Source: a virus (lineage: Duplodnaviria > Caudoviricetes). From it: a stretch of DNA of 60,787 nucleotides. Positions 20,279 to 52,212 of the stretch are shown in pieces. The translations under genes were made by a program, and so were the position numbers. Each line of letters opens with the position of its first letter. Positions within the stretch are counted from its first letter, which is position 1. The DNA is taken from IMG/VR virus record IMGVR_UViG_3300044823_000252, positions 1 through 60,787 of that record. One strand, written 5' to 3'. The notes under the pieces were generated by a model. That model was not told where the DNA came from, ran no database searches, and saw only the letters and a list, made by a program, of their open reading frames with translations.

Positions 20279-20677
20279 GTGAACCTCTCCATCCCCCACT
20301 GCCAGGACGCCCTGCACTGGCTCAAGGGTCGCGGCTGGGACCTGACGCCGCTCACCCCGCCCGACGTCCACGCCCTGCTCGCCGTCGCGCACTGCTGGCA
20401 GCTCTGGGCGAGGCGCGACCCCGCCGGGCAGCGCGCCGCCGTCGACGCCGTGGCCGCGCTGCTCGACTGCTGCCAGGAGGTCGCCTGGCCGATGGCGCGC
20501 GAGCTCGTCGCCCACGCTAGCAACTGGCACTACCGAGACGCTGTCTGGCCCGAGGTCACCCGCCGGTTCGAGGCGCGCATGCGCGCGCAGTTCGGATCGA
20601 TCGTCAACATCGACGAGATCAACCGGATCAAGCGCCTCGAGCGCTGCCACGTCGGCCTCACGCTGGTGATGTCATGA
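20279..20677 (+). CDS. Hypothetical protein
   Basis: Coupled ORF upstream of cas12. Confidence 0.6.
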   Translation: MNLSIPHCQDALHWLKGRGWDLTPLTPPDVHALLAVAHCWQLWARRDPAGQRAAVDAVAALLDCCQEVAWPMARELVAHASNWHYRDAVWPEVTRRFEARMRAQFGSIVNIDEINRIKRLERCHVGLTLVMS

Positions 20678-20985
20678 TCCTATTCGGATACGACACCAAC
20701 AAGCACGGGATGGTCCGGCTACGCATCCACGTGAACGATGTCGACAGGGTCACTGAGGTATGGCGCGCGCGCGGGCTCGAGGTCAGCGCGTACACCGAAC
20801 CGGATGACCCACCGACCGTCGACGAGCTCCTCGCTGGTCTGGATCTGACCGAGAGCGCGCGACGCTCGCGAAGCGAGAAGCGGATCTCGTTGACGGAGTC
20901 AAACCAGGACAACGTCGACGCCGTTCGTCGCAGCCACCAACGTGCAGCCGATATTGGCTGGCCACACGACCCACGAAAACTCTGA
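20674..20985 (+). CDS. Hypothetical protein directly upstream of cas12
   Basis: ATGA-coupled, 103 aa. Confidence 0.6.
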   Translation: MILFGYDTNKHGMVRLRIHVNDVDRVTEVWRARGLEVSAYTEPDDPPTVDELLAGLDLTESARRSRSEKRISLTESNQDNVDAVRRSHQRAADIGWPHDPRKL

Positions 20986-21003
20986 AAGTAGGGAGATAAA
21001 GCC

Positions 21004-23079
21004 ATGACTACACTGGTGTTTCGCAACGGAGTCACCGCGCCCCGCGAGGGCGCGGACGTCGTCCATGAGCAGATGTGGCGCGCGCACGCGTACCGCAAAA
21101 ACCTCGCGCTCATCGAGCGCGGTCGGCGGTGGGCCGAGCGCCTGGCGCGGTCGACCTGCAGCGCGGAGATGGAGGCAGCCGAAGCAAAAGTCGCCGGGAT
21201 CGCGGCGGCGTGCGAGTGGCTCGGCGCCGAGATCCGGGTCGGGCGCAAGGTCACCCGATCGCGCAGCGAGACGGCGTCCGCGCGCCTGCAGATCGCCGCC
21301 GCGCGCGCCGCGGGCAAACAGGCGCGCGAGCAACTCTACGCGGTGCGGGCGCGCTACGCGTCGCAGTGCAAGGAGTGCCGCAAGCTCAAGAGCGAGCAGA
21401 ACCCGTGCCCGCACGCCTCGGCGGAGGCGCGCGCGCTGCGCGACGCGATCGACACCATCGACACGATGGCTAACGAGATCGTCAAGAACGCCCGCCACCA
21501 CTCGGGTGTGTGGTGGGGCACGTACCTGATCGTCGAGCGCGCGCACCGCGCGAGCTGTGCGGCGCCGCTCTACGATAAAGACGGCGTCACGCCGCACGAC
21601 CCGGACTTGCCGCCACCGTGGGACGGCTCGGGGACCGTGGGCGTGCAGATCCAGTCGACTCGACCGCTGACGGTCGAGGGAGCGCTCGCGCAGAAGGACT
21701 CCAGGCTGCGGATCGGTGCCCCCCCGTGGCCCGAAGAGTGGCTCGCGAGCGCTACGCTCGCAGCGCGTCCCCCACGTCGAGAGGATAGCATCGTAGGGAG
21801 CGGTCGCGGCCGCCGTCCACCGGGGATCTTGCCAGGTCGTAAAGGTGAGCCGGACCAGCCTGCGCCGGCGACGCGACCCGACGGCACGCCAGCGCGCTGG
21901 GTGCGTGACCGTGCGGCGCGGCACGGCGAGCTCAGGTTGTGCGTAGACACCGACGAGCATCGCCGGCCGATCTGGGCGACATTCCGGCTCGACTACCACC
22001 GGCCGCTACCGGCCGGTGCGTCCATCACCTGGGCCGCCGTCCACCGGCGCGCGCGCGGGCCGCACAGTGAGTGGAGCCTCTGCCTGACGGTCAACACGCC
22101 GGATACCGTGACCGTTCCCCAGGTCCCGGACCGCCCGACCGTCGCCGTCGACGTGGGCTGGCGGTTGATAGACGGGGCGATCCGCGTCGCGGCTTGGCAC
22201 GACTCGAACGGGAAAAGCGGCGAGCTACGGCTGACCGTTGCCGACGTCCACGTGCTCCGCATGCACGCGGACGTGCGCAGCGAGCGCGACCGCGCGTTCG
22301 ACATCTGCAAGACGAACCTGAAGCGGTGGATCAATGTCTCTCCGGTCGCGACGGAGTGGATGCGGGACGCCGCGCGCGTGATGCACGCGTGGCGCCGCCC
22401 GGCCAAGCTGGTCCGCCTGCTCCGTCGCTGGGAGAGTGAGCGGCCGGACCGAGACGCCGCCGAGGACGCCGCGCTCCAGGCTGTCCGGGCGTGGGCGATG
22501 GGTGACTGGGCGCGGTGGGCCACCGAGGAAGCGTGTCGCGTGCGCGGGCTGCGACGCCGGCGCGACAAGTACCGCTGCTTCGCCGCGGAGCTCACGCGCG
22601 CGTACGGCACGATCGTGATCGAGCAGTTCGACCTGCGGGTGGTCGCCACCCGGAAAGCGACCGGGGCGGACGACGCCGAGAACGAGGTCGCGCGCAGCAA
22701 CCGCCAGCTCGCCGCCGTGAGCGAACTGCGCGACTGCCTGATATCGACCGCTCCGCGTCGCGGCACCCAGATCGCGGCCGTAGACGCCGCGTACACGACC
22801 AGCACGTGCCCGGCGTGTGGGCTCGTGGCCGACCGGGAGCCCGCCCTGCGGGTGCGCCTGCGCTGCACGTGTGGTCACGAGTGGGACCAGGACCGGGAGG
22901 GTGCGGCCCCGCTGCTGCTCCAGCGGTGGTGCGAGCGGCCCGGCGACGCGAAGATCGTGGCGGCCGCTCGCGACGACGGTAAGGATGCAGAAGACAAGGC
23001 GAAGAAGAGTGAACGGTGGGCGCGTGCGCGCCGGATGGGAGCCGCCAAGAAGGTCCGGGTGGCGAGCGCTCGAAAGTAG
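21004..23079 (+). CDS. cas12: Type V CRISPR effector, Cas12m-like (V-U1/V-M), TnpB-derived RuvC protein
   Basis: RuvC-I VAVD383VGWR, RuvC-II IVIE540QFDL, Zn finger TSTCPACG..CTCG, RuvC-III WDQD630. N-terminus EQMWRAHAYRKNLALIER plus a long coiled coil resembles Cas12m. GGGAG RBS; CRISPR array starts 41 bp downstream. Confidence 0.88.
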   Translation: MTTLVFRNGVTAPREGADVVHEQMWRAHAYRKNLALIERGRRWAERLARSTCSAEMEAAEAKVAGIAAACEWLGAEIRVGRKVTRSRSETASARLQIAAARAAGKQAREQLYAVRARYASQCKECRKLKSEQNPCPHASAEARALRDAIDTIDTMANEIVKNARHHSGVWWGTYLIVERAHRASCAAPLYDKDGVTPHDPDLPPPWDGSGTVGVQIQSTRPLTVEGALAQKDSRLRIGAPPWPEEWLASATLAARPPRREDSIVGSGRGRRPPGILPGRKGEPDQPAPATRPDGTPARWVRDRAARHGELRLCVDTDEHRRPIWATFRLDYHRPLPAGASITWAAVHRRARGPHSEWSLCLTVNTPDTVTVPQVPDRPTVAVDVGWRLIDGAIRVAAWHDSNGKSGELRLTVADVHVLRMHADVRSERDRAFDICKTNLKRWINVSPVATEWMRDAARVMHAWRRPAKLVRLLRRWESERPDRDAAEDAALQAVRAWAMGDWARWATEEACRVRGLRRRRDKYRCFAAELTRAYGTIVIEQFDLRVVATRKATGADDAENEVARSNRQLAAVSELRDCLISTAPRRGTQIAAVDAAYTTSTCPACGLVADREPALRVRLRCTCGHEWDQDREGAAPLLLQRWCERPGDAKIVAAARDDGKDAEDKAKKSERWARARRMGAAKKVRVASARK

Positions 23080-23120
23080 GTCTGCAACGACCAAGGATCC
23101 TTGACAATTTATAAGCGGCT
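23080..23120 (+). promoter_or_regulatory. Short CRISPR leader
   Basis: AT-rich TTGACAATTTATAAG tract just before repeat 1, in otherwise GC-rich DNA. Confidence 0.6.
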
Positions 23121-24677
23121 GTCGCGACGGCAGCGGGGTCGATCGAAGACTCCGACGACCACAGCCCGGTCATGCTCGCCCTCTTCGACGGCGTCGCGAC
23201 GGCAGCGGGGTCGATCGAAGACTCCGACGTACCGATCGACGAGAGCCATGGCGGAAGACCTCCTGAGGTCGCGACGGCAGCGGGGTCGATCGAAGACTCC
23301 GACCGCCATCCCCGACCACCTCCGCCCTGACGCCCCTGGTCGCGACGGCAGCGGGGTCGATCGAAGACTCCGACATCAAGCTGTGCTGGAAGTGCGCTTC
23401 GCACCCGCGGTCGCGACGGCAGCGGGGTCGATCGAAGACTCCGACAGGTGACCCACCTCGCTGTTGCCCATCTGCCCCGGCGTCGCGACGGCAGCGGGGT
23501 CGATCGAAGACTCCGACACGCCGCTCGCGGTCTGGCCGGCGTTCACGGCGCCAAGTCGCGACGGCAGCGGGGTCGATCGAAGACTCCGACGATGCCATCT
23601 TGCGGCGCTAGCGGGGACACTCGGGGTCGCGACGGCAGCGGGGTCGATCGAAGACTCCGACGTGCTCCATCGTCTCGCCTCGCCTCCGAAGGTGACGCCA
23701 AGTCGCGACGGCAGCGGGGTCGATCGAAGACTCCGACTTGTTGCTGCCGGCGGAGCCACTCGTCCGCGCGCGCAAGTCGCGACGGCAGCGGGGTCGATCG
23801 AAGACTCCGACATCTCGAGGCAGTGGCCTTAATAGCCGCGCAGCGCGTCGCGACGGCAGCGGGGTCGATCGAAGACTCCGACACGGAGGGACCTGCCTTG
23901 CGGGGGAGCCGCTCTCTGGTCGCGACGGCAGCGGGGTCGATCGAAGACTCCGACGATGCCATCTTGCGGCGCTAGCGGGGACACTCGGGGTCGCGACGGC
24001 AGCGGGGTCGATCGAAGACTCCGACGGGGGGCACGTTGGGACCTGCTCGCCAACCGGGGAGCTGGTCGTGACGGCAGCGGGGTCGATCGAAGACTCCGAC
24101 GGGCTAACAGCCGCGGGCGCCGCCGCAGGTGCACTAGTCGCGACGGCAGCGGGGTCGATCGAAGACTCCGACCCACCACCTGACCGAGCGTCTCCGTTTC
24201 GTTTGTGAGTCGCGACGGCAGCGGGGTCGATCGAAGACTCCGACACTGACCATCGGCGTCGTCCCCCTTCACCACCCGCAAGAGTCGCGACGGCAGCGGG
24301 GTCGATCGAAGACTCCGACCGTGGATCTCGCCACCGTCGAATGACGGGCCCGACGTCGCGACGGCAGCGGGGTCGATCGAAGACTCCGACCCAGTCACGC
24401 GCCGAGGTCTCCGTCACCCGCGGACCGTCGCGACGGCAGCGGGGTCGATCGAAGACTCCGACGGGCTAACAGCCGCGGGCGCCGCCGCAGGTGCACTAGT
24501 CGCGACGGCAGCGGGGTCGATCGAAGACTCCGACGCCATATCGTCCATCGTCACGCCGGTCACGGGCAGGTCGCGACGGCAGCGGGGTCGATCGAAGACT
24601 CCGACCGCGTCGTAGTACGCGCCTACGACGATGCTCGCGATGTCGCGACGGCAGCGGGGTCGATCGAAGACTCCGAC
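23121..24677 (+). CRISPR. CRISPR array: 22 repeats of 36 nt (GTCGCGACGGCAGCGGGGTCGATCGAAGACTCCGAC), 21 spacers of 35-40 nt (19 unique)
   Basis: Counted directly. Only repeat 14 (24065) differs (C>T at position 5). The 3' hairpin CGGGGTC-GATCGAA-GACTCCG followed by AC supports + orientation. Spacer 7 = 12 and 14 = 19. Confidence 0.99.
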
Positions 24678-25138
24678 GGCGTCGCGGGCATGATGTACGC
24701 GGCGGAGTAGAGCCGATCCCCGCCCGCCATCGTGCGGGAGAGGAGCTCGTCGTATCGTTCGAAACGGAACTCCCGGAACGAAACGCCTCCGAAGGCGCGC
24801 ACGAGGAGAGACCAGGTGTCGATGCGGTTGAAGAGCTTGAACAGCAGGGTGCGGAAGAACACCTCGCGCGGTGCCTGGTCCCCCTCGCAGATCACACGCC
24901 GGATGAGAAACTGGCTCACCCGATCCGATGCGCGATAGGCGTTCGTGAACTTGTAGGCGCCGAGGATCGGGTCCTTCGTCCACTGTCCTAGGGGCTCCTG
25001 GATGCGGCGGAAAAAGATGGCTTGGCGCTCGCACGCGAACCGCCAGTACGTGTCGTAGACCTCGCTCGGGATCACCGGCGAGAGCTTGGCGAAGACGAAC
25101 GGCGCGCGCGCGCGACCATGTTCGGACGGGGTCGTCAT
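24678..25138 (-). pseudogene. 3'-truncated aGPT-Pplase1 / 5hmdU-DNA-kinase-family (thymine hypermodification) gene
   Basis: YWRFACERQAIFFRR..WTKDPILGAYKFTNAYRASDRVSQ..LFKLFNRIDTW..YSAAYIMP, then the frame runs straight into the last CRISPR repeat. Confidence 0.75.
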
Positions 25139-25230
25139 GACGCGGAGGCGCGGTACGTCGCACCGCACGGCTTGCAGAGCGTGGCACCGTCATCGGTGAG
25201 CCAGAAGTGGTGGGTCAGGTGCTTCACGAC

Positions 25231-32666: not shown

Positions 32667-35072
32667 CTAAGGCCCACGGAGGACGAACCGCGCCTGCACG
32701 CTGGACCCAGTCGCCGCCAGGACGGCGACGATGACTTGGGAGAACGGCCGCGGGCCGAGCGCGGCCATAAGCTCGCTCTCCCCGAGCGCGAGTCCGGGTG
32801 ACAGCGCGGCCATGAGCCTGCAGAACTGCTGGATCCGCTCCGTGATGACCGCAAAACGGCAAGCCCCCGCCTCGCTCCGCAGGCGGGGGTCCACTCGGGT
32901 GGAGCGAGCGGGGGCGGCCCTAGTCCGGTCTCTTCTGGTTCTCCACGTACTGCCTGAGGATCTCGATAGGCGCACCTCCCGCCGAGATGATGCAGTAGCT
33001 CGGCGACCAGAGGACAGGCTTGCCTCGGTAGGCCGAGCGAAGAACGGGGAACTCGGCGCGCAGCCGGCGGCTCGTAACGGTCTTGAGGTTGTTGATGATG
33101 TCCGTCGGCCGCACCTTCGGCGGCAGGTCGATGAGCGCATGGATGTGGTCGACCTCTCCGGAGCATTCGAGCAGGCACCCCTCCCACGCTTCGCAGAGAG
33201 TGCCGAGGATGGTCGAGGCCCGGTCGAGCATGGCTCCGGTGAGCACATTCTTGCGGTACTTGGTAACGAGAACCAAGTGGTAGACGAGTCGGTAAACGGC
33301 GTTTGCGTTGCGGTGGAGAGCTTGCGTATGGGCCACGAACCAAGCATAGTACGGCCATGGTCCGCGTCTACCGCTATCGCCTGTACCCGACGCGAGCCCA
33401 GGACGCCGCGCTGCGAGAAACGATCGAACGGCTCCGCGAGTTGTACAACGCTGCCCTCCAGCATCGCCGCGACGCATACCGCAAGGCTGGCGTCACCGTC
33501 TCCGCCTACAGCCAGATGCGAGAGCTTGTCGGTGTTCGTCTCGTGCGGCCCGAGTACGCCGAGATCCATACGCATCTCTTGCAGGACGTTCTCACACGAC
33601 TCGACCGTGCCTACCGCGCGTTCTTCCGGCGCTGCAAAGCTGGCGAGACGCCGGGCTTCCCTCGGTTCAAGGGGCGTGGCCGCTACCGAACCTTCACGTT
33701 CAAGGACGCAGCGAATCACAACGGCGTCCGGCTTCTCCCGACTGGCCGGGTCAAGCTCGCGGGCATCGGCAACGTCAAGGTCAAACTCCATCGTCACGTC
33801 GAGGGGCGCATCAAGCAAGCGTCCGTGTCCCTCGACGGAGACGGTCACTGGTACGTGGTCTTTGCGTGCGCCGAGGTCCCGACGAAACCTCTGCCCGCCA
33901 CTGGCAAAAGCGTCGGCATCGACGTCGGCATCACCACGTTCGCCGCGCTCAGCGACGGCCCGCCGGTCGACAATCCTCGACCCTACGAGGTCGCGCAGCG
34001 CTCTCTCGCTACGGCACAGCGTCGCGTGTCTCGACGCAAGCGCGGGTCGAAGCGTCGGCGCAAGGCCGTGGTTCTTCTCGCCAAGCAGTCGGCACGCGTC
34101 CAGCGGGTGCGCCTCGACTTTCACCACAAGACCGCCCACGCCATCGTTCAGCGGTTCGACTCGATTTCCGTGGAGGACCTCAACGTCAAAGGCTTGGCGC
34201 GTATGCGTCTCGCCAAACAGGTACACGATGCCGGGTGGGCTCAGTTCACCACGATCCTCGCTAGCAAGGCTGAAAGCGCCGGCCGCGAGTTCTATCGGGT
34301 GGACCCACGCGGCACATCTCAGGAATGCAGCGGCTGCCACGCTAGGGTCCCGAAAGGGCTCCACGTGCGCGTCCACGCGTGTCCGCGCTGCGGGCTCGTT
34401 TTGGACCGCGACGTCAACGCGGCCCTCAACGTACAAGCGCGGGGACACCGCGTTCGGGGAGGGCTGAATGTCCAGCTCGAAGATCCGAGAAGCCCCTACC
34501 TCGCCGCTTGCGGCAGGTAGGGGAGTTGTCACGTGGCGGGCCATCGCGTAGCCGGCGCGCATCACGCCGAGGACCGCCCCGTCGATCGGATCCGCGAACA
34601 TGTCACCGAACGCGAAGGACGACGCGGGCACGTCGGGCCACGGAGGATGGGTCTCGACCTCAGCGATCGATCGGGCGAGCGACAGCCCACGGGCGAGGTC
34701 GTCGGCGGAGTTCAGGCTCCGCATACTACCGAACACCACGCACTCGCCGACCATCCCAGCGAGCGTCACGACTAGATCGCACCAGAGCGTGTCGGGCGCC
34801 CTCCGCGCGAGGCGTTTGAGCAGGACGTGCCCACCAGGCTGACCGTCGGCGGACCGCGTGACGTCCACGCGCAGCACGCCGGTCACCGACGTGCAGTGCC
34901 AGGCCAGGAGCGCGTGGCCGGCCTCGTGCGCGACCGCCCGCGGGTTGACCGGCTCTGACTGGACTGCAGGCGCAGCCACAGGCCACTCCCGCGCGAGGGT
35001 CAGCACCAGCGCGGCGAGGGGCATCGCCGCCGTCAGCTCGAACGCGAGGAGAGCGGCGGCGAACGGGGTCAC
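32667..35072 (-). CDS. Peptidase M41 (FtsH protease domain)-like gene interrupted in frame by IS605
   Basis: AVAHEAGHA, LAGMVGE, ADDL motifs; removing 32850-34532 restores ..AMARH|VITERIQ.. (240 aa). Confidence 0.75.
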   Translation of the reverse strand: MTPFAAALLAFELTAAMPLAALVLTLAREWPVAAPAVQSEPVNPRAVAHEAGHALLAWHCTSVTGVLRVDVTRSADGQPGGHVLLKRLARRAPDTLWCDLVVTLAGMVGECVVFGSMRSLNSADDLARGLSLARSIAEVETHPPWPDVPASSFAFGDMFADPIDGAVLGVMRAGYAMARHVTTPLPAASGEVGASRIFELDIQPSPNAVSPRLYVEGRVDVAVQNEPAARTRVDAHVEPFRDPSVAAAAFLRCAAWVHPIELAAGAFSLASEDRGELSPPGIVYLFGETHTRQAFDVEVLHGNRVEPLNDGVGGLVVKVEAHPLDACRLLGEKNHGLAPTLRPALASRHATLCRSERALRDLVGSRIVDRRAVAERGERGDADVDADAFASGGQRFRRDLGARKDHVPVTVSVEGHGRLLDAPLDVTMEFDLDVADARELDPASREKPDAVVIRCVLEREGSVAATPLEPREARRLASFAAPEERAVGTVESCENVLQEMRMDLGVLGPHETNTDKLSHLAVGGDGDASLAVCVAAMLEGSVVQLAEPFDRFSQRGVLGSRRVQAIAVDADHGRTMLGSWPIRKLSTATQTPFTDSSTTWFSLPSTARMCSPEPCSTGPRPSSALSAKRGRGACSNAPERSTTSMRSSTCRRRCGRRTSSTTSRPLRAAGCAPSSPFFARPTEASLSSGRRATASSRREVRLSRSSGSTWRTRRDRTRAAPARSTRVDPRLRSEAGACRFAVITERIQQFCRLMAALSPGLALGESELMAALGPRPFSQVIVAVLAATGSSVQARFVLRGP
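32920..33336 (-). CDS. tnpA: IS200-family Y1 transposase
   Basis: YHLVLVTKYRK, HUH motif DHIH, LWSPSY, catalytic YVENQ; GTG start inferred. Confidence 0.95.
   Translation of the reverse strand: MAHTQALHRNANAVYRLVYHLVLVTKYRKNVLTGAMLDRASTILGTLCEAWEGCLLECSGEVDHIHALIDLPPKVRPTDIINNLKTVTSRRLRAEFPVLRSAYRGKPVLWSPSYCIISAGGAPIEILRQYVENQKRPD
33357..34520 (+). CDS. tnpB: RNA-guided endonuclease TnpB
   Basis: YRYRLYPT, PRFK, GIDVGI, VEDL, TSQECSGC..CPRCG, DRDVNAALN; intact D-E-D. Confidence 0.96.
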   Translation: MVRVYRYRLYPTRAQDAALRETIERLRELYNAALQHRRDAYRKAGVTVSAYSQMRELVGVRLVRPEYAEIHTHLLQDVLTRLDRAYRAFFRRCKAGETPGFPRFKGRGRYRTFTFKDAANHNGVRLLPTGRVKLAGIGNVKVKLHRHVEGRIKQASVSLDGDGHWYVVFACAEVPTKPLPATGKSVGIDVGITTFAALSDGPPVDNPRPYEVAQRSLATAQRRVSRRKRGSKRRRKAVVLLAKQSARVQRVRLDFHHKTAHAIVQRFDSISVEDLNVKGLARMRLAKQVHDAGWAQFTTILASKAESAGREFYRVDPRGTSQECSGCHARVPKGLHVRVHACPRCGLVLDRDVNAALNVQARGHRVRGGLNVQLEDPRSPYLAACGR

Positions 35073-45786: not shown

Positions 45787-46625
45787 ACCAACCGACCACC
45801 GATATTGACGAGACAGCCGTCCAGGCTGCGCCGTTCTTGAAAAGCGCAGGGGGGAAGCGCTCGCTCCTGCCCGAGATCCGCGAGCACGTACCTGCGTCGT
45901 TCGGGCGGTACTTCGAGCCGTTCGTCGGTGGTGGTGCCGTCTTCTTCGATCTCCACGCCGTCGGAAGGGCCGACCGTGCCTACCTTGGTGACGCCAACAT
46001 CCACTGGATAATGGCGTACGAGGCCGTCCGCGACGATGTCGACGACCTCATCACCGCGCTCTTGGCTCACGCCGTCAAGCACTCGGCGGAGCACTACTAC
46101 GCTGTGCGCGAGCAGTCGCCGACGTCGAGACTCGCCATAGCGGCGCGGGCGATCTACCTGAACAAGACGTGTTTCAACGGACTTCACCGCGTCAACAAAG
46201 CTGGCAAGTTCAACGTCCCGATCGGCCGGTACGCGAACCCGACGATCTGCGACGAGGCGAACCTGCGCGCCTGCTCGGTCGCGCTGCAGAGCGTGGAGCT
46301 CGCGCGCGGCGACTTCGCGTCGGTGATGGCGCACGCTCGGGCGGGCGACTTCGTCTACTTCGACTGCCCGTACGTGCCGGTGAGCGCGAGCAGTCACTTC
46401 ACCGGGTACACGTCAGGGGGGTTCGACTGGACCGACCAGGAGCGGCTCGCGTCCTGCGCGCGCCGACTCAAGAAGCAAGGCGTGTGCGTACTGCTCTCCA
46501 ACGCCGACCATCTGAGCGTACGCAGACTCTACAATGGCTTCGAGATGCAGACCGTGAAGGCGCGCCGCAACATCAACAGCAAGGCCGGCAAGCGCGGGGT
46601 GGTCGGCGAGCTGCTCATCTGGTGA
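45783..46625 (+). CDS. dam: Dam-family (D12) DNA adenine methyltransferase, DCPY variant
   Basis: LKSAGGK, EPFVGGGAV, YLNKTCFNGLHRVN..FNVPIG, VYFDCPY. Confidence 0.88.
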   Translation: MNQPTTDIDETAVQAAPFLKSAGGKRSLLPEIREHVPASFGRYFEPFVGGGAVFFDLHAVGRADRAYLGDANIHWIMAYEAVRDDVDDLITALLAHAVKHSAEHYYAVREQSPTSRLAIAARAIYLNKTCFNGLHRVNKAGKFNVPIGRYANPTICDEANLRACSVALQSVELARGDFASVMAHARAGDFVYFDCPYVPVSASSHFTGYTSGGFDWTDQERLASCARRLKKQGVCVLLSNADHLSVRRLYNGFEMQTVKARRNINSKAGKRGVVGELLIW

Positions 46626-46639
46626 AGGGAGTCGGTGCC

Positions 46640-47854
<1,215 letters not shown>

Positions 47855-48301: not shown

Positions 48302-49195
48302 ATGCCGAAAGAATCGAGAGACGCGCTCAATGCGAAGGGTAAGACCGATGTCTACTACTTCGACCCGACCGACGTGGTCCTGGTCGAGAACAAGGCTTCC
48401 GCGCTCTACGACGAGCGGGTGGAGAACGACTTCAAGGAGTCGCTCGTCGTCAACATGATGTACCAGCCGGAGCCCGACGGGCCGCCGCAGGGCGTCCTCA
48501 AGGTACTCCTCGGCCGGCGCAACGCGGAGACTGGCAAGGTCGAGATCATCGACGGCAGGCAACGCACCAAAGCCTGCCGCGAGGCGAACCGTCGGCTCAA
48601 GAAACAGGGAGCGGAGCTACTTCGTCTGCCGGTGCTGCTCAAGCGCGCGAACGACGTGCGGTCGATGGCGATGCTTATCAGCTCCAACGAGCACACGACG
48701 GAAGACTCGCCGCTCAAGAAGGCCCACAAGGCGCAACGCTACATCGACCTTGGGCGCGACGAGTCGGAGGTGGGGGCTCTGCTTGGCCTCTCGCGGCAGT
48801 CGGTCAAGAGTCTACTGTCCTTGCTCGATGCACCCGCCTCCGTCAGAAACGCCGTCGAGATGGGCAAGATCACCGCGCGCGACGGCTACAAACTCGCACG
48901 CCTTGCTCCGGATGAGGCCAAGGTGAAGGTCGCGGAGCTACTCGAGCACGCGCCGCGAACGCCCGGCAAGAAACGGTCGCCTAACGCGAAGCGCGCGCGG
49001 GAGATCCTCGGCGGCGGCGAGCAGAAACTAGCGCCGGATCCCACCAACAGTCATACGACCAAGAAGGGAGAGGACGCGGTCGCGGAGTCCATCGCCGTGT
49101 GGATCGAGCGGACGTGGAACGGCGACGAGAACTGGGACGGGTCGCCGAAGGATATTCCTCAACGGATCCGCGCCGGGGAGTGGCGAAACAAATGA
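48302..49195 (+). CDS. ParB-like protein
   Basis: IIDGRQRTKA Arg patch, SSN, then an HTH (ESEVGALLGLSRQSV). Confidence 0.75.
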   Translation: MPKESRDALNAKGKTDVYYFDPTDVVLVENKASALYDERVENDFKESLVVNMMYQPEPDGPPQGVLKVLLGRRNAETGKVEIIDGRQRTKACREANRRLKKQGAELLRLPVLLKRANDVRSMAMLISSNEHTTEDSPLKKAHKAQRYIDLGRDESEVGALLGLSRQSVKSLLSLLDAPASVRNAVEMGKITARDGYKLARLAPDEAKVKVAELLEHAPRTPGKKRSPNAKRAREILGGGEQKLAPDPTNSHTTKKGEDAVAESIAVWIERTWNGDENWDGSPKDIPQRIRAGEWRNK

Positions 49196-51327: not shown

Positions 51328-52212
51328 GTGAGTTACGAGGCGAAGATCATCCTGGACAGCGTAGGCCCGAACGGCGTGCGCCTGACGACGTTCGAACTGT
51401 CTTACCCGCGCATCGTGCACGCCGAGTTGCTCACGCACCGTATGTTCTCGCGCAACAGCGCCTCGTCGCGCGCCATCCCGACCGAGAGGTTGCTCGGTCG
51501 GATCGAGGAGGACCCGGTGCTGCCGGTCTGGTGGGGGAAGAACCAATCTGGGATGGCTGCGCGCGAGGAGCTCGACGGCGAGGCGCTCGAGTCAGCGAAG
51601 CGTTTATGGCTCGAGGCCGTCATGAGCGGCGTGCGGTACGCGCGCGAGCTCGGGAACCTCGGCCTGCACAAGCAGGTCGCCAACCGCGCCGCCGAACTCG
51701 GCATGTTCATCACCGTCGTCGTGACGGCGACGGAGTTCGACAATTTCTTCGCACTCCGCGACCACACGGCCGCGCAGCCGGAGTTGGCCGACGTCGCCGG
51801 CAAAGCTCATCGACTGTGGCAGGCGAGCGAGCCGGAGCGACTCTCTGCCGGGATGTGGCACCTACCGTACGTGACCGGCTACGACGGGCACATCTTGGGC
51901 TATGGTCCGGACGACATCTGCCGGATCAGTATCGGCCGGTGCGCGGCCGTCAGCTACCTGAACCAGGACAAGCGCGACCCGCCCGCAGATCTAGCGCGCG
52001 CAGGCAAGCTCGCGGCGGCAGGGCACATGAGCCCCTTCGAGCACGTCGCGCAGGCGCTCACCGAGGAGCAGTGGGTGCTCTACGGCACCGAGTTGGTTGC
52101 TAGGTGGGTGGACCGTCGAGTCCCGATTGGCAACCTGTGGGGCTGGCGACAGTATCGTAAAGGGCTCAAGAACGAGCACGACTTCTCGAAGATCGGAGCC
52201 GACCATGCCTGA
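51328..52212 (+). CDS. thyX: Phage ThyX-like flavin-dependent thymidylate synthase
   Basis: ELLTHRMFSRNSASSRAIP, LHKQVANR, AQPE, HMSPFEH. Confidence 0.85.
   Translation: MSYEAKIILDSVGPNGVRLTTFELSYPRIVHAELLTHRMFSRNSASSRAIPTERLLGRIEEDPVLPVWWGKNQSGMAAREELDGEALESAKRLWLEAVMSGVRYARELGNLGLHKQVANRAAELGMFITVVVTATEFDNFFALRDHTAAQPELADVAGKAHRLWQASEPERLSAGMWHLPYVTGYDGHILGYGPDDICRISIGRCAAVSYLNQDKRDPPADLARAGKLAAAGHMSPFEHVAQALTEEQWVLYGTELVARWVDRRVPIGNLWGWRQYRKGLKNEHDFSKIGADHA

Follow-up and report, generated by a model that had tools for sequence, protein, structure and literature searches.

The window analysed here is the whole of IMG/VR virus record IMGVR_UViG_3300044823_000252 (60,787 bases, with inverted terminal repeats flagged and a CheckV completeness of 76%), and our subject is a cassette in it that consists of one gene and one CRISPR array. 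All features of this system described below lie on the + strand. The gene, cas12m, is an open reading frame (ORF) running from ATG to TAG at 21004..23079 (+), and it encodes a 691-aa RuvC/Zn-finger protein that we place in a ~690-aa, virus-associated clade of type V-M effectors. It starts 18 nt past the TGA of the preceding ORF (20674-20985), with a Shine-Dalgarno-like GGGAG motif before the ATG, and 41 nt past its stop codon begins an array of 22 repeats of 36 nt and 21 spacers with the same direction as the gene (23121..24677, +). An earlier note on this DNA had described the same gene, gaps and repeats, and these coordinates were confirmed. The gene region is collinear on both flanks with a 119.9-kb IMG/VR contig (G001, CheckV 100%) that encodes a 93%-identical Cas12m protein. 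Across the record and this relative, Pfam models for Cas1, Cas2 and Cas4 gave nothing at E <= 1, in agreement with the earlier remark that no cas1 or cas2 accompanies the gene. We hold with high confidence that the locus is a functional V-M Cas12m system and, with noticeably less assurance, we favour the reading that its effector is a DNA binder that uses CRISPR RNA (crRNA) only, depends on a TTN motif, and silences genes of the host and of mobile elements while leaving them uncut.

Judged by sequence comparison and predicted fold, the 691-aa protein is a type V-M Cas12m that stands far from the TnpB proteins of IS605 insertion sequences (IS). A phmmer search of the PDB returned the Cas12m chains 23vw_A (E 7.5e-38), GoCas12m 8pm4_A (1e-16) and UnCas12m4a (8.7e-14), followed by Cas12f, TnpB and Fanzor only at E >= 0.15 (Cas12f 0.15-0.17). 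An AlphaFold2 model built from 38 homologs reached a mean predicted local distance difference test (pLDDT) of 85.8 and a predicted template modelling score (pTM) of 0.70. With this model, Foldseek placed Cas12m2 8hhl_A first (E 6.6e-28, template modelling (TM) score 0.65/0.74), next to GoCas12m (1.6e-26; TM 0.64-0.74 across the two), with TnpB and Cas12f at E ~1e-8. The superposition on Cas12m that the earlier note had proposed gives a whole-length match: VIA-align scored the model at Z 21.3 against GoCas12m (550 residues, root-mean-square deviation (rmsd) 4.5 A) and Z 20.5 against Cas12m2 (542 residues, rmsd 4.2 A), compared with Z 15.0 over 347 residues for TnpB and 12.4-13.7 for Cas12f. Every Cas12m feature that can be tested in silico was present, and the tests for TnpB failed. 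The sequence and the predicted fold thus agree with the earlier description of a stand-alone effector of the Cas12m lineage with its own array on a virus record.

The alternative that the gene is an ordinary IS200/IS605 tnpB lying beside unrelated repeats draws on three observations. The sole Pfam domain detected in the protein is the Cas12f1-like TNB Zn ribbon (PF07282, E 2.8e-10, residues 574-634), the NCBIfam guided_TnpB model matches weakly (37 bits for a cut-off of 100), and the record carries an IS605 copy elsewhere. That copy is an ordinary tnpB at 33303-34520 (+), ~10 kb downstream of the array, which matches OrfB_IS605, TNB and HTH_OrfB. It amends the earlier note, whose statement that no tnpA adjoins cas12m holds, by placing an unrelated tnpB in the same record. 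The neighbours of cas12m are small ORFs of unknown function and the CRISPR array. Neither OrfB_IS605 nor HTH_OrfB matches the 691-aa protein, and BLASTP between it and the TnpB of the record gave E 0.09 for an alignment confined to the Zn ribbon. IS200/IS605 TnpB proteins, this copy included, share the RuvC and Zn-ribbon core (Z ~14-15 over ~350 residues), but they have no REC (recognition) lobe and no array, use omega RNA and are IS-borne. With a predicted full-length Cas12m fold, no adjoining tnpA and an array whose targets carry a matching protospacer-adjacent motif (PAM), we consider a TnpB identity extremely improbable.

The earlier note had read D383, E540 and D630, a GWR motif and the sequence DQDREGA in this frame, and each was found at its codon. 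RuvC-I comprises D383 followed by G385-W386-R387 (22150..22164), with D conserved in 36 of the 38 aligned homologs, G and R in all 38 and W in 37. RuvC-II is marked by E540 (22621..22623; E in 36/38), and RuvC-III by D628-Q-D630-R-E-G-A634 (22885..22905), in which D628 and D630 are invariant (38/38). The Zn ribbon of the TNB domain is formed by C602, C605, C621 and C623 (22807..22872), kept in 36, 38, 37 and 38 of the 38 homologs, respectively. In the predicted model, D383 falls in strand 379-389, E540 ends strand 536-541 and D630 stands at the start of helix 629-644, which puts the modelled triad residues on the expected RuvC elements. The phmmer alignments show D, E and D at these positions in 23vw_A and H, D and D in GoCas12m, with D383 aligned to the GoCas12m histidine.

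The family to which the protein belongs is large, as a HMMER search of 1.84 billion representatives recovered 3132 clusters with E <= 1e-3, of which 1072 have E <= 1e-30. For the query and 183 relatives, each of at least 520 aa, the triad states are D-E-D in 154, N-E-D in 10, N-D-D in 7 and H-D-D in 2, the rest being singletons or pairs. At position 633, the Asn of DxDxNAA, the window protein has Gly, where 122 of the 184 sequences have N and 42 have G. In a midpoint-rooted FastTree phylogeny of this set, which covers unnamed relatives only, the ~690-aa proteins form a single clade of 28 tips with support of 1.0. Two insertions mark this distinct and well-supported clade on the evidence of the alignments. 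One is a Zn-finger-like CCCH segment in the helical (REC) lobe (C122-x2-C125-x9-C135-x-H137; 21367..21414), found in 28 of the 38 aligned homologs, the other 10 having a gap. The second is a Pro/Arg-rich, clade-specific insertion at aa 240-300 (21721..21903), modelled with low confidence (pLDDT 46-76 for residues 250-290); this segment holds at least 45 residues in just 29 of the 184 aligned relatives. The tips of the clade comprise 26 D-E-D proteins, one fragment and one N-D-D protein (P0025), which is nested within the clade as sister to P0009 (support 0.998), indicating that the canonical triad is dispensable there.

The intact triad raises the question of whether the RuvC site is active, that is, whether targets flanked by TTN are nicked or cut by the effector, through which, with guides against the host chromosome, the virus would damage competing elements or the DNA of its host. 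That the triad and the Zn ribbon are conserved favours such an activity. Four Cas12m clades are distinguished (Wu 2022, cited in PMC10442227), and those parts of PMC10442227 that treat clades 3 and 4 give them a D-E-D (or NED/DND) site and suggest that they may perform two-metal hydrolysis. The authors of a preprint on the myxophage MV-1 (bioRxiv 10.64898/2026.09.14.751636) likewise speculate, in its accessible text, that their D-E-D Cas12m is a nuclease, and the absence of a tyrosine integrase match from the record and its relative would suit a purely lytic virus, which could afford to cut its host. The experiments reported for the family go the other way. As described in PMC11013384, where 134 variants are tabulated, eight Cas12m orthologs were tested, four of them D-E-D, and none gave detectable cleavage of double-stranded DNA (dsDNA); purified MsCas12m (RuvC D274) and GoCas12m cleaved neither DNA nor RNA targets and had no collateral activity. 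According to PMC10442227, Cas12m2 did not regain cutting when its H-D-D was changed to D-E-D. The closest solved chain with D/E/D, 23vw_A, was named a DNA-binding protein by its depositors, an N-D-D member lies inside the clade, and the DxDxNAA Asn of most relatives is replaced by Gly in the window protein. A D-E-D triad by itself predicts no nuclease. We therefore regard an active nuclease as unlikely, and we give it the weight that it has because 26 of the 27 full-length members of the clade keep the triad and the tested orthologs are not close ones. A bolder and more tentative variant is that the site conserved as D-E-D in this clade is that of a nickase, an activity that the tested orthologs did not reveal.

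These reports also change how two statements of the earlier note can be read. Its description of characterised Cas12m as H-D-D is incomplete: it fits GoCas12m and Cas12m2 and leaves out clades 3 and 4 (PMC10442227) and the four D-E-D orthologs assayed in PMC11013384. The existence of a characterised clade with the same triad, which the note had set as a test against itself, is largely borne out, since D-E-D has been described, four such proteins have been assayed and 154 of 184 relatives carry it. Its proposal that the protein stands between TnpB and Cas12m and has kept the ability to cut DNA was drawn from the triad and is not supported.

The window protein can be compared with several described systems. 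The D-E-D Cas12m of Wu 2022 and PMC11013384, as far as those sources describe them, resemble it in triad, GWR motif, Zn ribbon, lone array, two-stem repeat and T/C-rich 5' PAM, and by analogy would share a crRNA-only mode; the window protein differs, in a comparison by description, in being ~90 residues longer, in its CCCH REC insertion and Pro/Arg loop and in being virus-borne. PDB 23vw_A (577 aa), which bears the title 'CRISPR-associated DNA-binding protein Cas12m', is the best match over residues 296-638 and shares D/E/D and the DLGWR and WDQD motifs, but its N-terminal half has no detectable sequence similarity and it reads DQDYNAA in place of DQDREGA. MmCas12m2 (8HHL, 8HHM, 8HIO) and GoCas12m (8PM4) share the whole-length fold and, for Cas12m2, the TTN PAM given in the relevant section of PMC10442227, but they are H-D-D, bacterial rather than viral, and 23-24% identical in the structural alignment.

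Closest in setting is MvCas12m of MV-1, which its authors term the first phage Cas12m. As the available text of the preprint (10.64898/2026.09.14.751636) describes it, the protein is phage-encoded with a myxobacterial host, has a D-E-D site (D305/E463/D555) and an adjacent array, and lacks cas1, cas2, cas4 and a tracrRNA (trans-activating crRNA). It differs, in a comparison by description only, in its 610 aa, its 8 spacers and the absence of protospacers found by its authors. The CRISPR systems of huge phages, including Cas-phi, likewise have arrays without adaptation genes and some spacers against host chromosomal genes, which the pertinent section of PMC7162821 proposes to alter host regulation; their effectors are Cas-phi, type I and others, unlike the Cas12m family, which is known for binding DNA without cutting it. 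Virus-borne relatives are common. A profile scan of IMG/VR found 16 loci, and the 15 other than the close relative encode proteins of 22-33% identity on contigs of 37-194 kb, except for one of 5 kb, two of them being of 84 and 96 kb. A scan of genome contigs returned three homolog loci, in metagenome-assembled genomes (MAGs) of Polyangiaceae, Actinomycetota and Microvirga, and neither TRF nor a k-mer scan found an array at any of them.

Of the 22 repeats in the array, 21 are identical and the remaining one carries a single C>T change at 24069; the spacers are 35-40 nt long and 19 of the 21 are unique, spacer 7 being identical to spacer 12 (23591-23625 = 23955-23989) and spacer 14 to spacer 19 (24101-24136 = 24463-24498). 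The members of each pair are five units apart with different spacers in between, and identity over the surrounding 108 nt is 100% for one pair and 99% for the other. This part of the array lies outside the cover of short-read contigs, and the duplications may be an artefact of assembly. RNAfold gives the repeat a stem I of 4 bp and a stem II of 7 bp that closes a loop of 7 nt, with AC at the 3' end, which agrees with the stem-loop noted earlier. An alignment of 14 repeats from the window and 7 loci, to which the window contributes two, the relative's array six, the array of a bacterial MAG two and distant viral loci four, supports stem II by covariation: 96.9% of cells are paired, 6 of the 7 pairs have changes on both sides, 0 of 500 shuffles reach the covariation score, and sliding the partner columns lowers pairing to 23-56%. 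Stem I is weaker, with 83.9% paired and changes on one side only. No anti-repeat lies near the gene, beside which the earlier note had seen little room for a tracrRNA; outside the array, complementarity to the repeat extends to 12 nt at most in the window, at a site ~11 kb away, and an Rfam search returned no match. The absence of a long anti-repeat and of an Rfam match fits, by analogy, the crRNA-only mode given for Cas12m in the relevant passages of PMC11013384.

To find targets, we compared the arrays with 401 genomes of the myxobacterial order that contains a Polyangiaceae MAG with a distant Cas12m homolog, scoring the best two candidates per genome, so that further true matches may have been missed. 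Among the matches listed, about 89 of the 401 genomes have one to spacer 5 (23446..23481) in the host gene gpmI, at best with 35 of 36 positions, antisense to the gene and within the conserved segment that codes for GNSEVGH; the 5' flank is TTG or TTC, and the Pfam domains iPGM_N and Metalloenzyme identify the product as cofactor-independent phosphoglycerate mutase. Contigs resembling gpmI in the peat runs that hold the virus also overlap spacer 5, with flanks GTT|C or GTTG| and 2-3 differences. Spacer 14 (24101..24136) and its identical copy, spacer 19 (24463..24498), match a bacterial genome in 36 of 36 positions (G372:C394, 100% over 38 nt, 5' flank TTC). An ORF of 172 aa, rich in Gly and Ala, holds the site and is immediately upstream of the gene for a sigma-54 activator; homologs of this ORF occur in only 3 of 301 sampled genomes, which indicates an accessory gene. 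From the relative's array, searched against the same genomes, one spacer (L002:9494-9529) matches 34/36 within an IS1-like DDE transposase ORF, recognised by a sub-threshold Pfam match (22.2 bits for a cut-off of 24.1). These matches lend support to the earlier suggestion that the system is used against competing elements or the host, and the likely hosts are myxobacteria.

On the spacer-sense strand, TTC or TTG comes immediately before each of the three independent protospacers, which amounts to 5'-TTN. Given a TT frequency of 0.016-0.034 in the protospacer loci, the joint chance of this is ~1.6e-5. The flank fixes the direction of the array, which is that of cas12m, and it equals the PAM reported for Cas12m2 in the part of PMC10442227 that deals with target recognition. 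Other candidates were dropped: of the two matches that the relative's array had outside the related G341 array, the one in G401 (90% over 47 nt) consisted mostly of repeat sequence, and the weaker matches of other spacers (20 regions re-aligned, 401 genomes) had 6-15 mismatches and none had TT at -3/-2. Searches of the spacers against isolate-phage and plasmid collections gave chance-level matches only (E 0.1-0.5). The window contains no self-target (alignments reach 18 nt, with 2 mismatches, and exact matches 13 nt), and the relative G001 contains no target of the window spacers (best 84% over 35 nt).

The two related viruses differ in the content of their arrays, with zero spacers in common. 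The array of the relative (L002 8115-10312) is composite: 15 clean units of a variant repeat come first, with compensatory changes in stem II, and the distal half holds ~15 decayed units of the window type at irregular spacings of 14-82 nt. As the spacers are unshared and neither virus has Cas1, Cas2 or Cas4 matches, spacers must turn over, be it by acquisition through borrowed machinery or by recombination. In a MAG of the same bacterial order (L022, G341:C770:24718-25427), a contig ends in a closely related repeat array with compensating stem changes; its cas12m side is lost at the contig end, and the array could belong to a virus binned with the MAG, to a prophage or to a locus of the host.

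These data also bear on a reading of the locus as relic or passenger, with an array that this protein no longer uses, for instance because a host effector takes the guides or because the cassette decays, and with host matches left over from spacer uptake elsewhere. The missing adaptation genes, the truncated kinase gene that the array abuts, the decay of the distal half of the relative's array and the 17 of 19 unique spacers without a target would all suit such a history. It is at odds with the near-perfect identity of the repeats, with an intact ORF that is 100% identical in four runs, with the turnover indicated by a protein 93% identical to its relative yet sharing no spacer with it, with a PAM that is consistent in 3 of 3 protospacers, and with the conservation of the gene-plus-array layout, in which a CRISPR-like array lies just downstream in 10 of the 15 other IMG/VR loci. 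The same arrangement of an adjacent array without other cas genes is described for Cas12m loci in the relevant part of PMC10691335. We judge a relic or passenger quite improbable, less so than a TnpB and more so than an active nuclease.

The favoured reading, a silencing DNA binder, suggests the following course, most of it by analogy with the characterised proteins. The array would be transcribed together with cas12m or just after it, and Cas12m itself would cut the pre-crRNA in its repeat portion, without a tracrRNA. Each crRNA would then consist of a repeat handle of ~33 nt with the covarying 3' hairpin and a guide of ~17-20 nt. The complex would locate DNA flanked by 5'-TTN, form a stable R-loop and remain bound, and it would block transcription or replication instead of cutting. 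Some at least of the guides appear to target the chromosome of the host, where gpmI and a small accessory gene are the sites, and one guide of the sister virus an IS transposase, so that the virus would silence host and mobile-element genes during infection. A further and more speculative step, which we put forward only tentatively and think more apt to be wrong than right, is that the virus runs a programmable CRISPR interference (CRISPRi) in which a Cas12m that does not cut is equipped with host-derived guides, that against the glycolytic gene gpmI and the twice-present one against the accessory gene, and switches host genes off during infection, with TTN-filtered acquisition in the absence of adaptation genes.

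Several observations weigh against silencing without cutting by a virus-borne effector. D383, E540 and D630 are retained not only in nearly all full-length members of the clade (26/27) but also in 154 of 184 relatives, and such conservation fits a selected catalytic role; processing of pre-crRNA does not explain it, because the D274A variant of MsCas12m still processed RNA in the experiment reported in PMC11013384. The assays described in the sections of that paper bearing on cleavage cover dsDNA, RNA and collateral cleavage, with no nicking test on supercoiled DNA among them. The orthologs tested are all distant, and the best solved relative aligns over residues 296-638 only, and the clade has insertions of its own. 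On the side of the targets, spacer 5 has at least one mismatch in the PAM-proximal 9 nt in all genomes examined, and a target was found for only 2 of the 19 unique spacers, the other 17 having no convincing match. Finally, the identity of the record as a virus rests on its IMG/VR label; it has replication genes and terminase-like matches and no match to a capsid model.

The 41-nt stretch between gene and array (23080..23120) is a putative leader that contains a conserved TTGACAA, and it has the same length in the 93% relative. The string GATC-TTGACAA (window 23096-23106; L002 8090-8100) is shared by both viruses, and the remainder of the stretch has diverged. A scan for consensus sigma-70 promoters found none, TTGACAA having no matching -10 element. 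Just 5' of cas12m, 42 nt of the window are replaced in the relative by ~1.1 kb of inserted sequence without a Pfam match (L002 4794-5895).

The cas12m gene recurs with 0 differences in independent Logan contigs, which come from four runs of peat metagenomes, and contigs of three runs (X2, X3, X4) confirm the junction between the last repeat and the downstream sequence. Logan contigs end at repeats, and the interior of the array at 24091-24603 is without contig cover. A single contig of run X1 fuses 20931 to 24654, omitting cas12m and most of the array (3722 nt); its shorter side is only 24 nt, which makes this weak, and the contig could represent a variant without the cassette.

Outside the system, the next neighbour is a truncated 5-hydroxymethyldeoxyuridine (5-hmdU) DNA kinase gene on the - strand (24623..25168), whose frame runs into the last repeat. 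It covers positions 1-132 of the 281 in the PF18723 profile, with the match ending at 24674, and stops exactly at the last, perfect repeat. The gene is absent from the relative, which has ~4 kb of different sequence at the corresponding spot. In a 4.9-kb contig of run X1, the kinase fragment (24677-25140, 1 difference) is found between other sequence on both sides, which suggests that the gene is whole in another genome.

The record also encodes an RtcB RNA ligase (46169-47854), a ParB-like protein (48302-49195) and a thymidylate-synthase-like protein of PHROG 85 (51328-52212). PHROG scans of the record and its relative returned helicases, ParB-like, thymidylate-synthase-like and partial terminase-like matches only, and searches for the HK97 capsid Pfam model and for a tyrosine integrase found no match in either the 60.8-kb record or the 119.9-kb relative.

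The D-E-D site as such adds little to what is known of Cas12m, as it has been described before, four such proteins were assayed without cutting and a phage-borne example is already in a preprint, as far as the cited texts report. New here, and modest as additions, are the PAM seen in nature, the targets in the host and in an IS, the covariation of the 3' repeat hairpin and the delimitation of the ~690-aa clade. The 5'-TTN PAM is taken directly from natural protospacers, and the virus-associated clade with its two insertions provides a defined test set for the function of D-E-D in type V-M. The targets, a host housekeeping gene, an accessory gene and an IS transposase, are the first concrete ones known to us for a virus-borne Cas12m array; no dedicated literature search was made, and the statement is based on the MV-1 preprint (10.64898/2026.09.14.751636), whose accessible text reports that no protospacers were found. 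With such targets known, the silencing of host genes by a virus through a CRISPR effector that does not cut becomes testable with a simple reporter.

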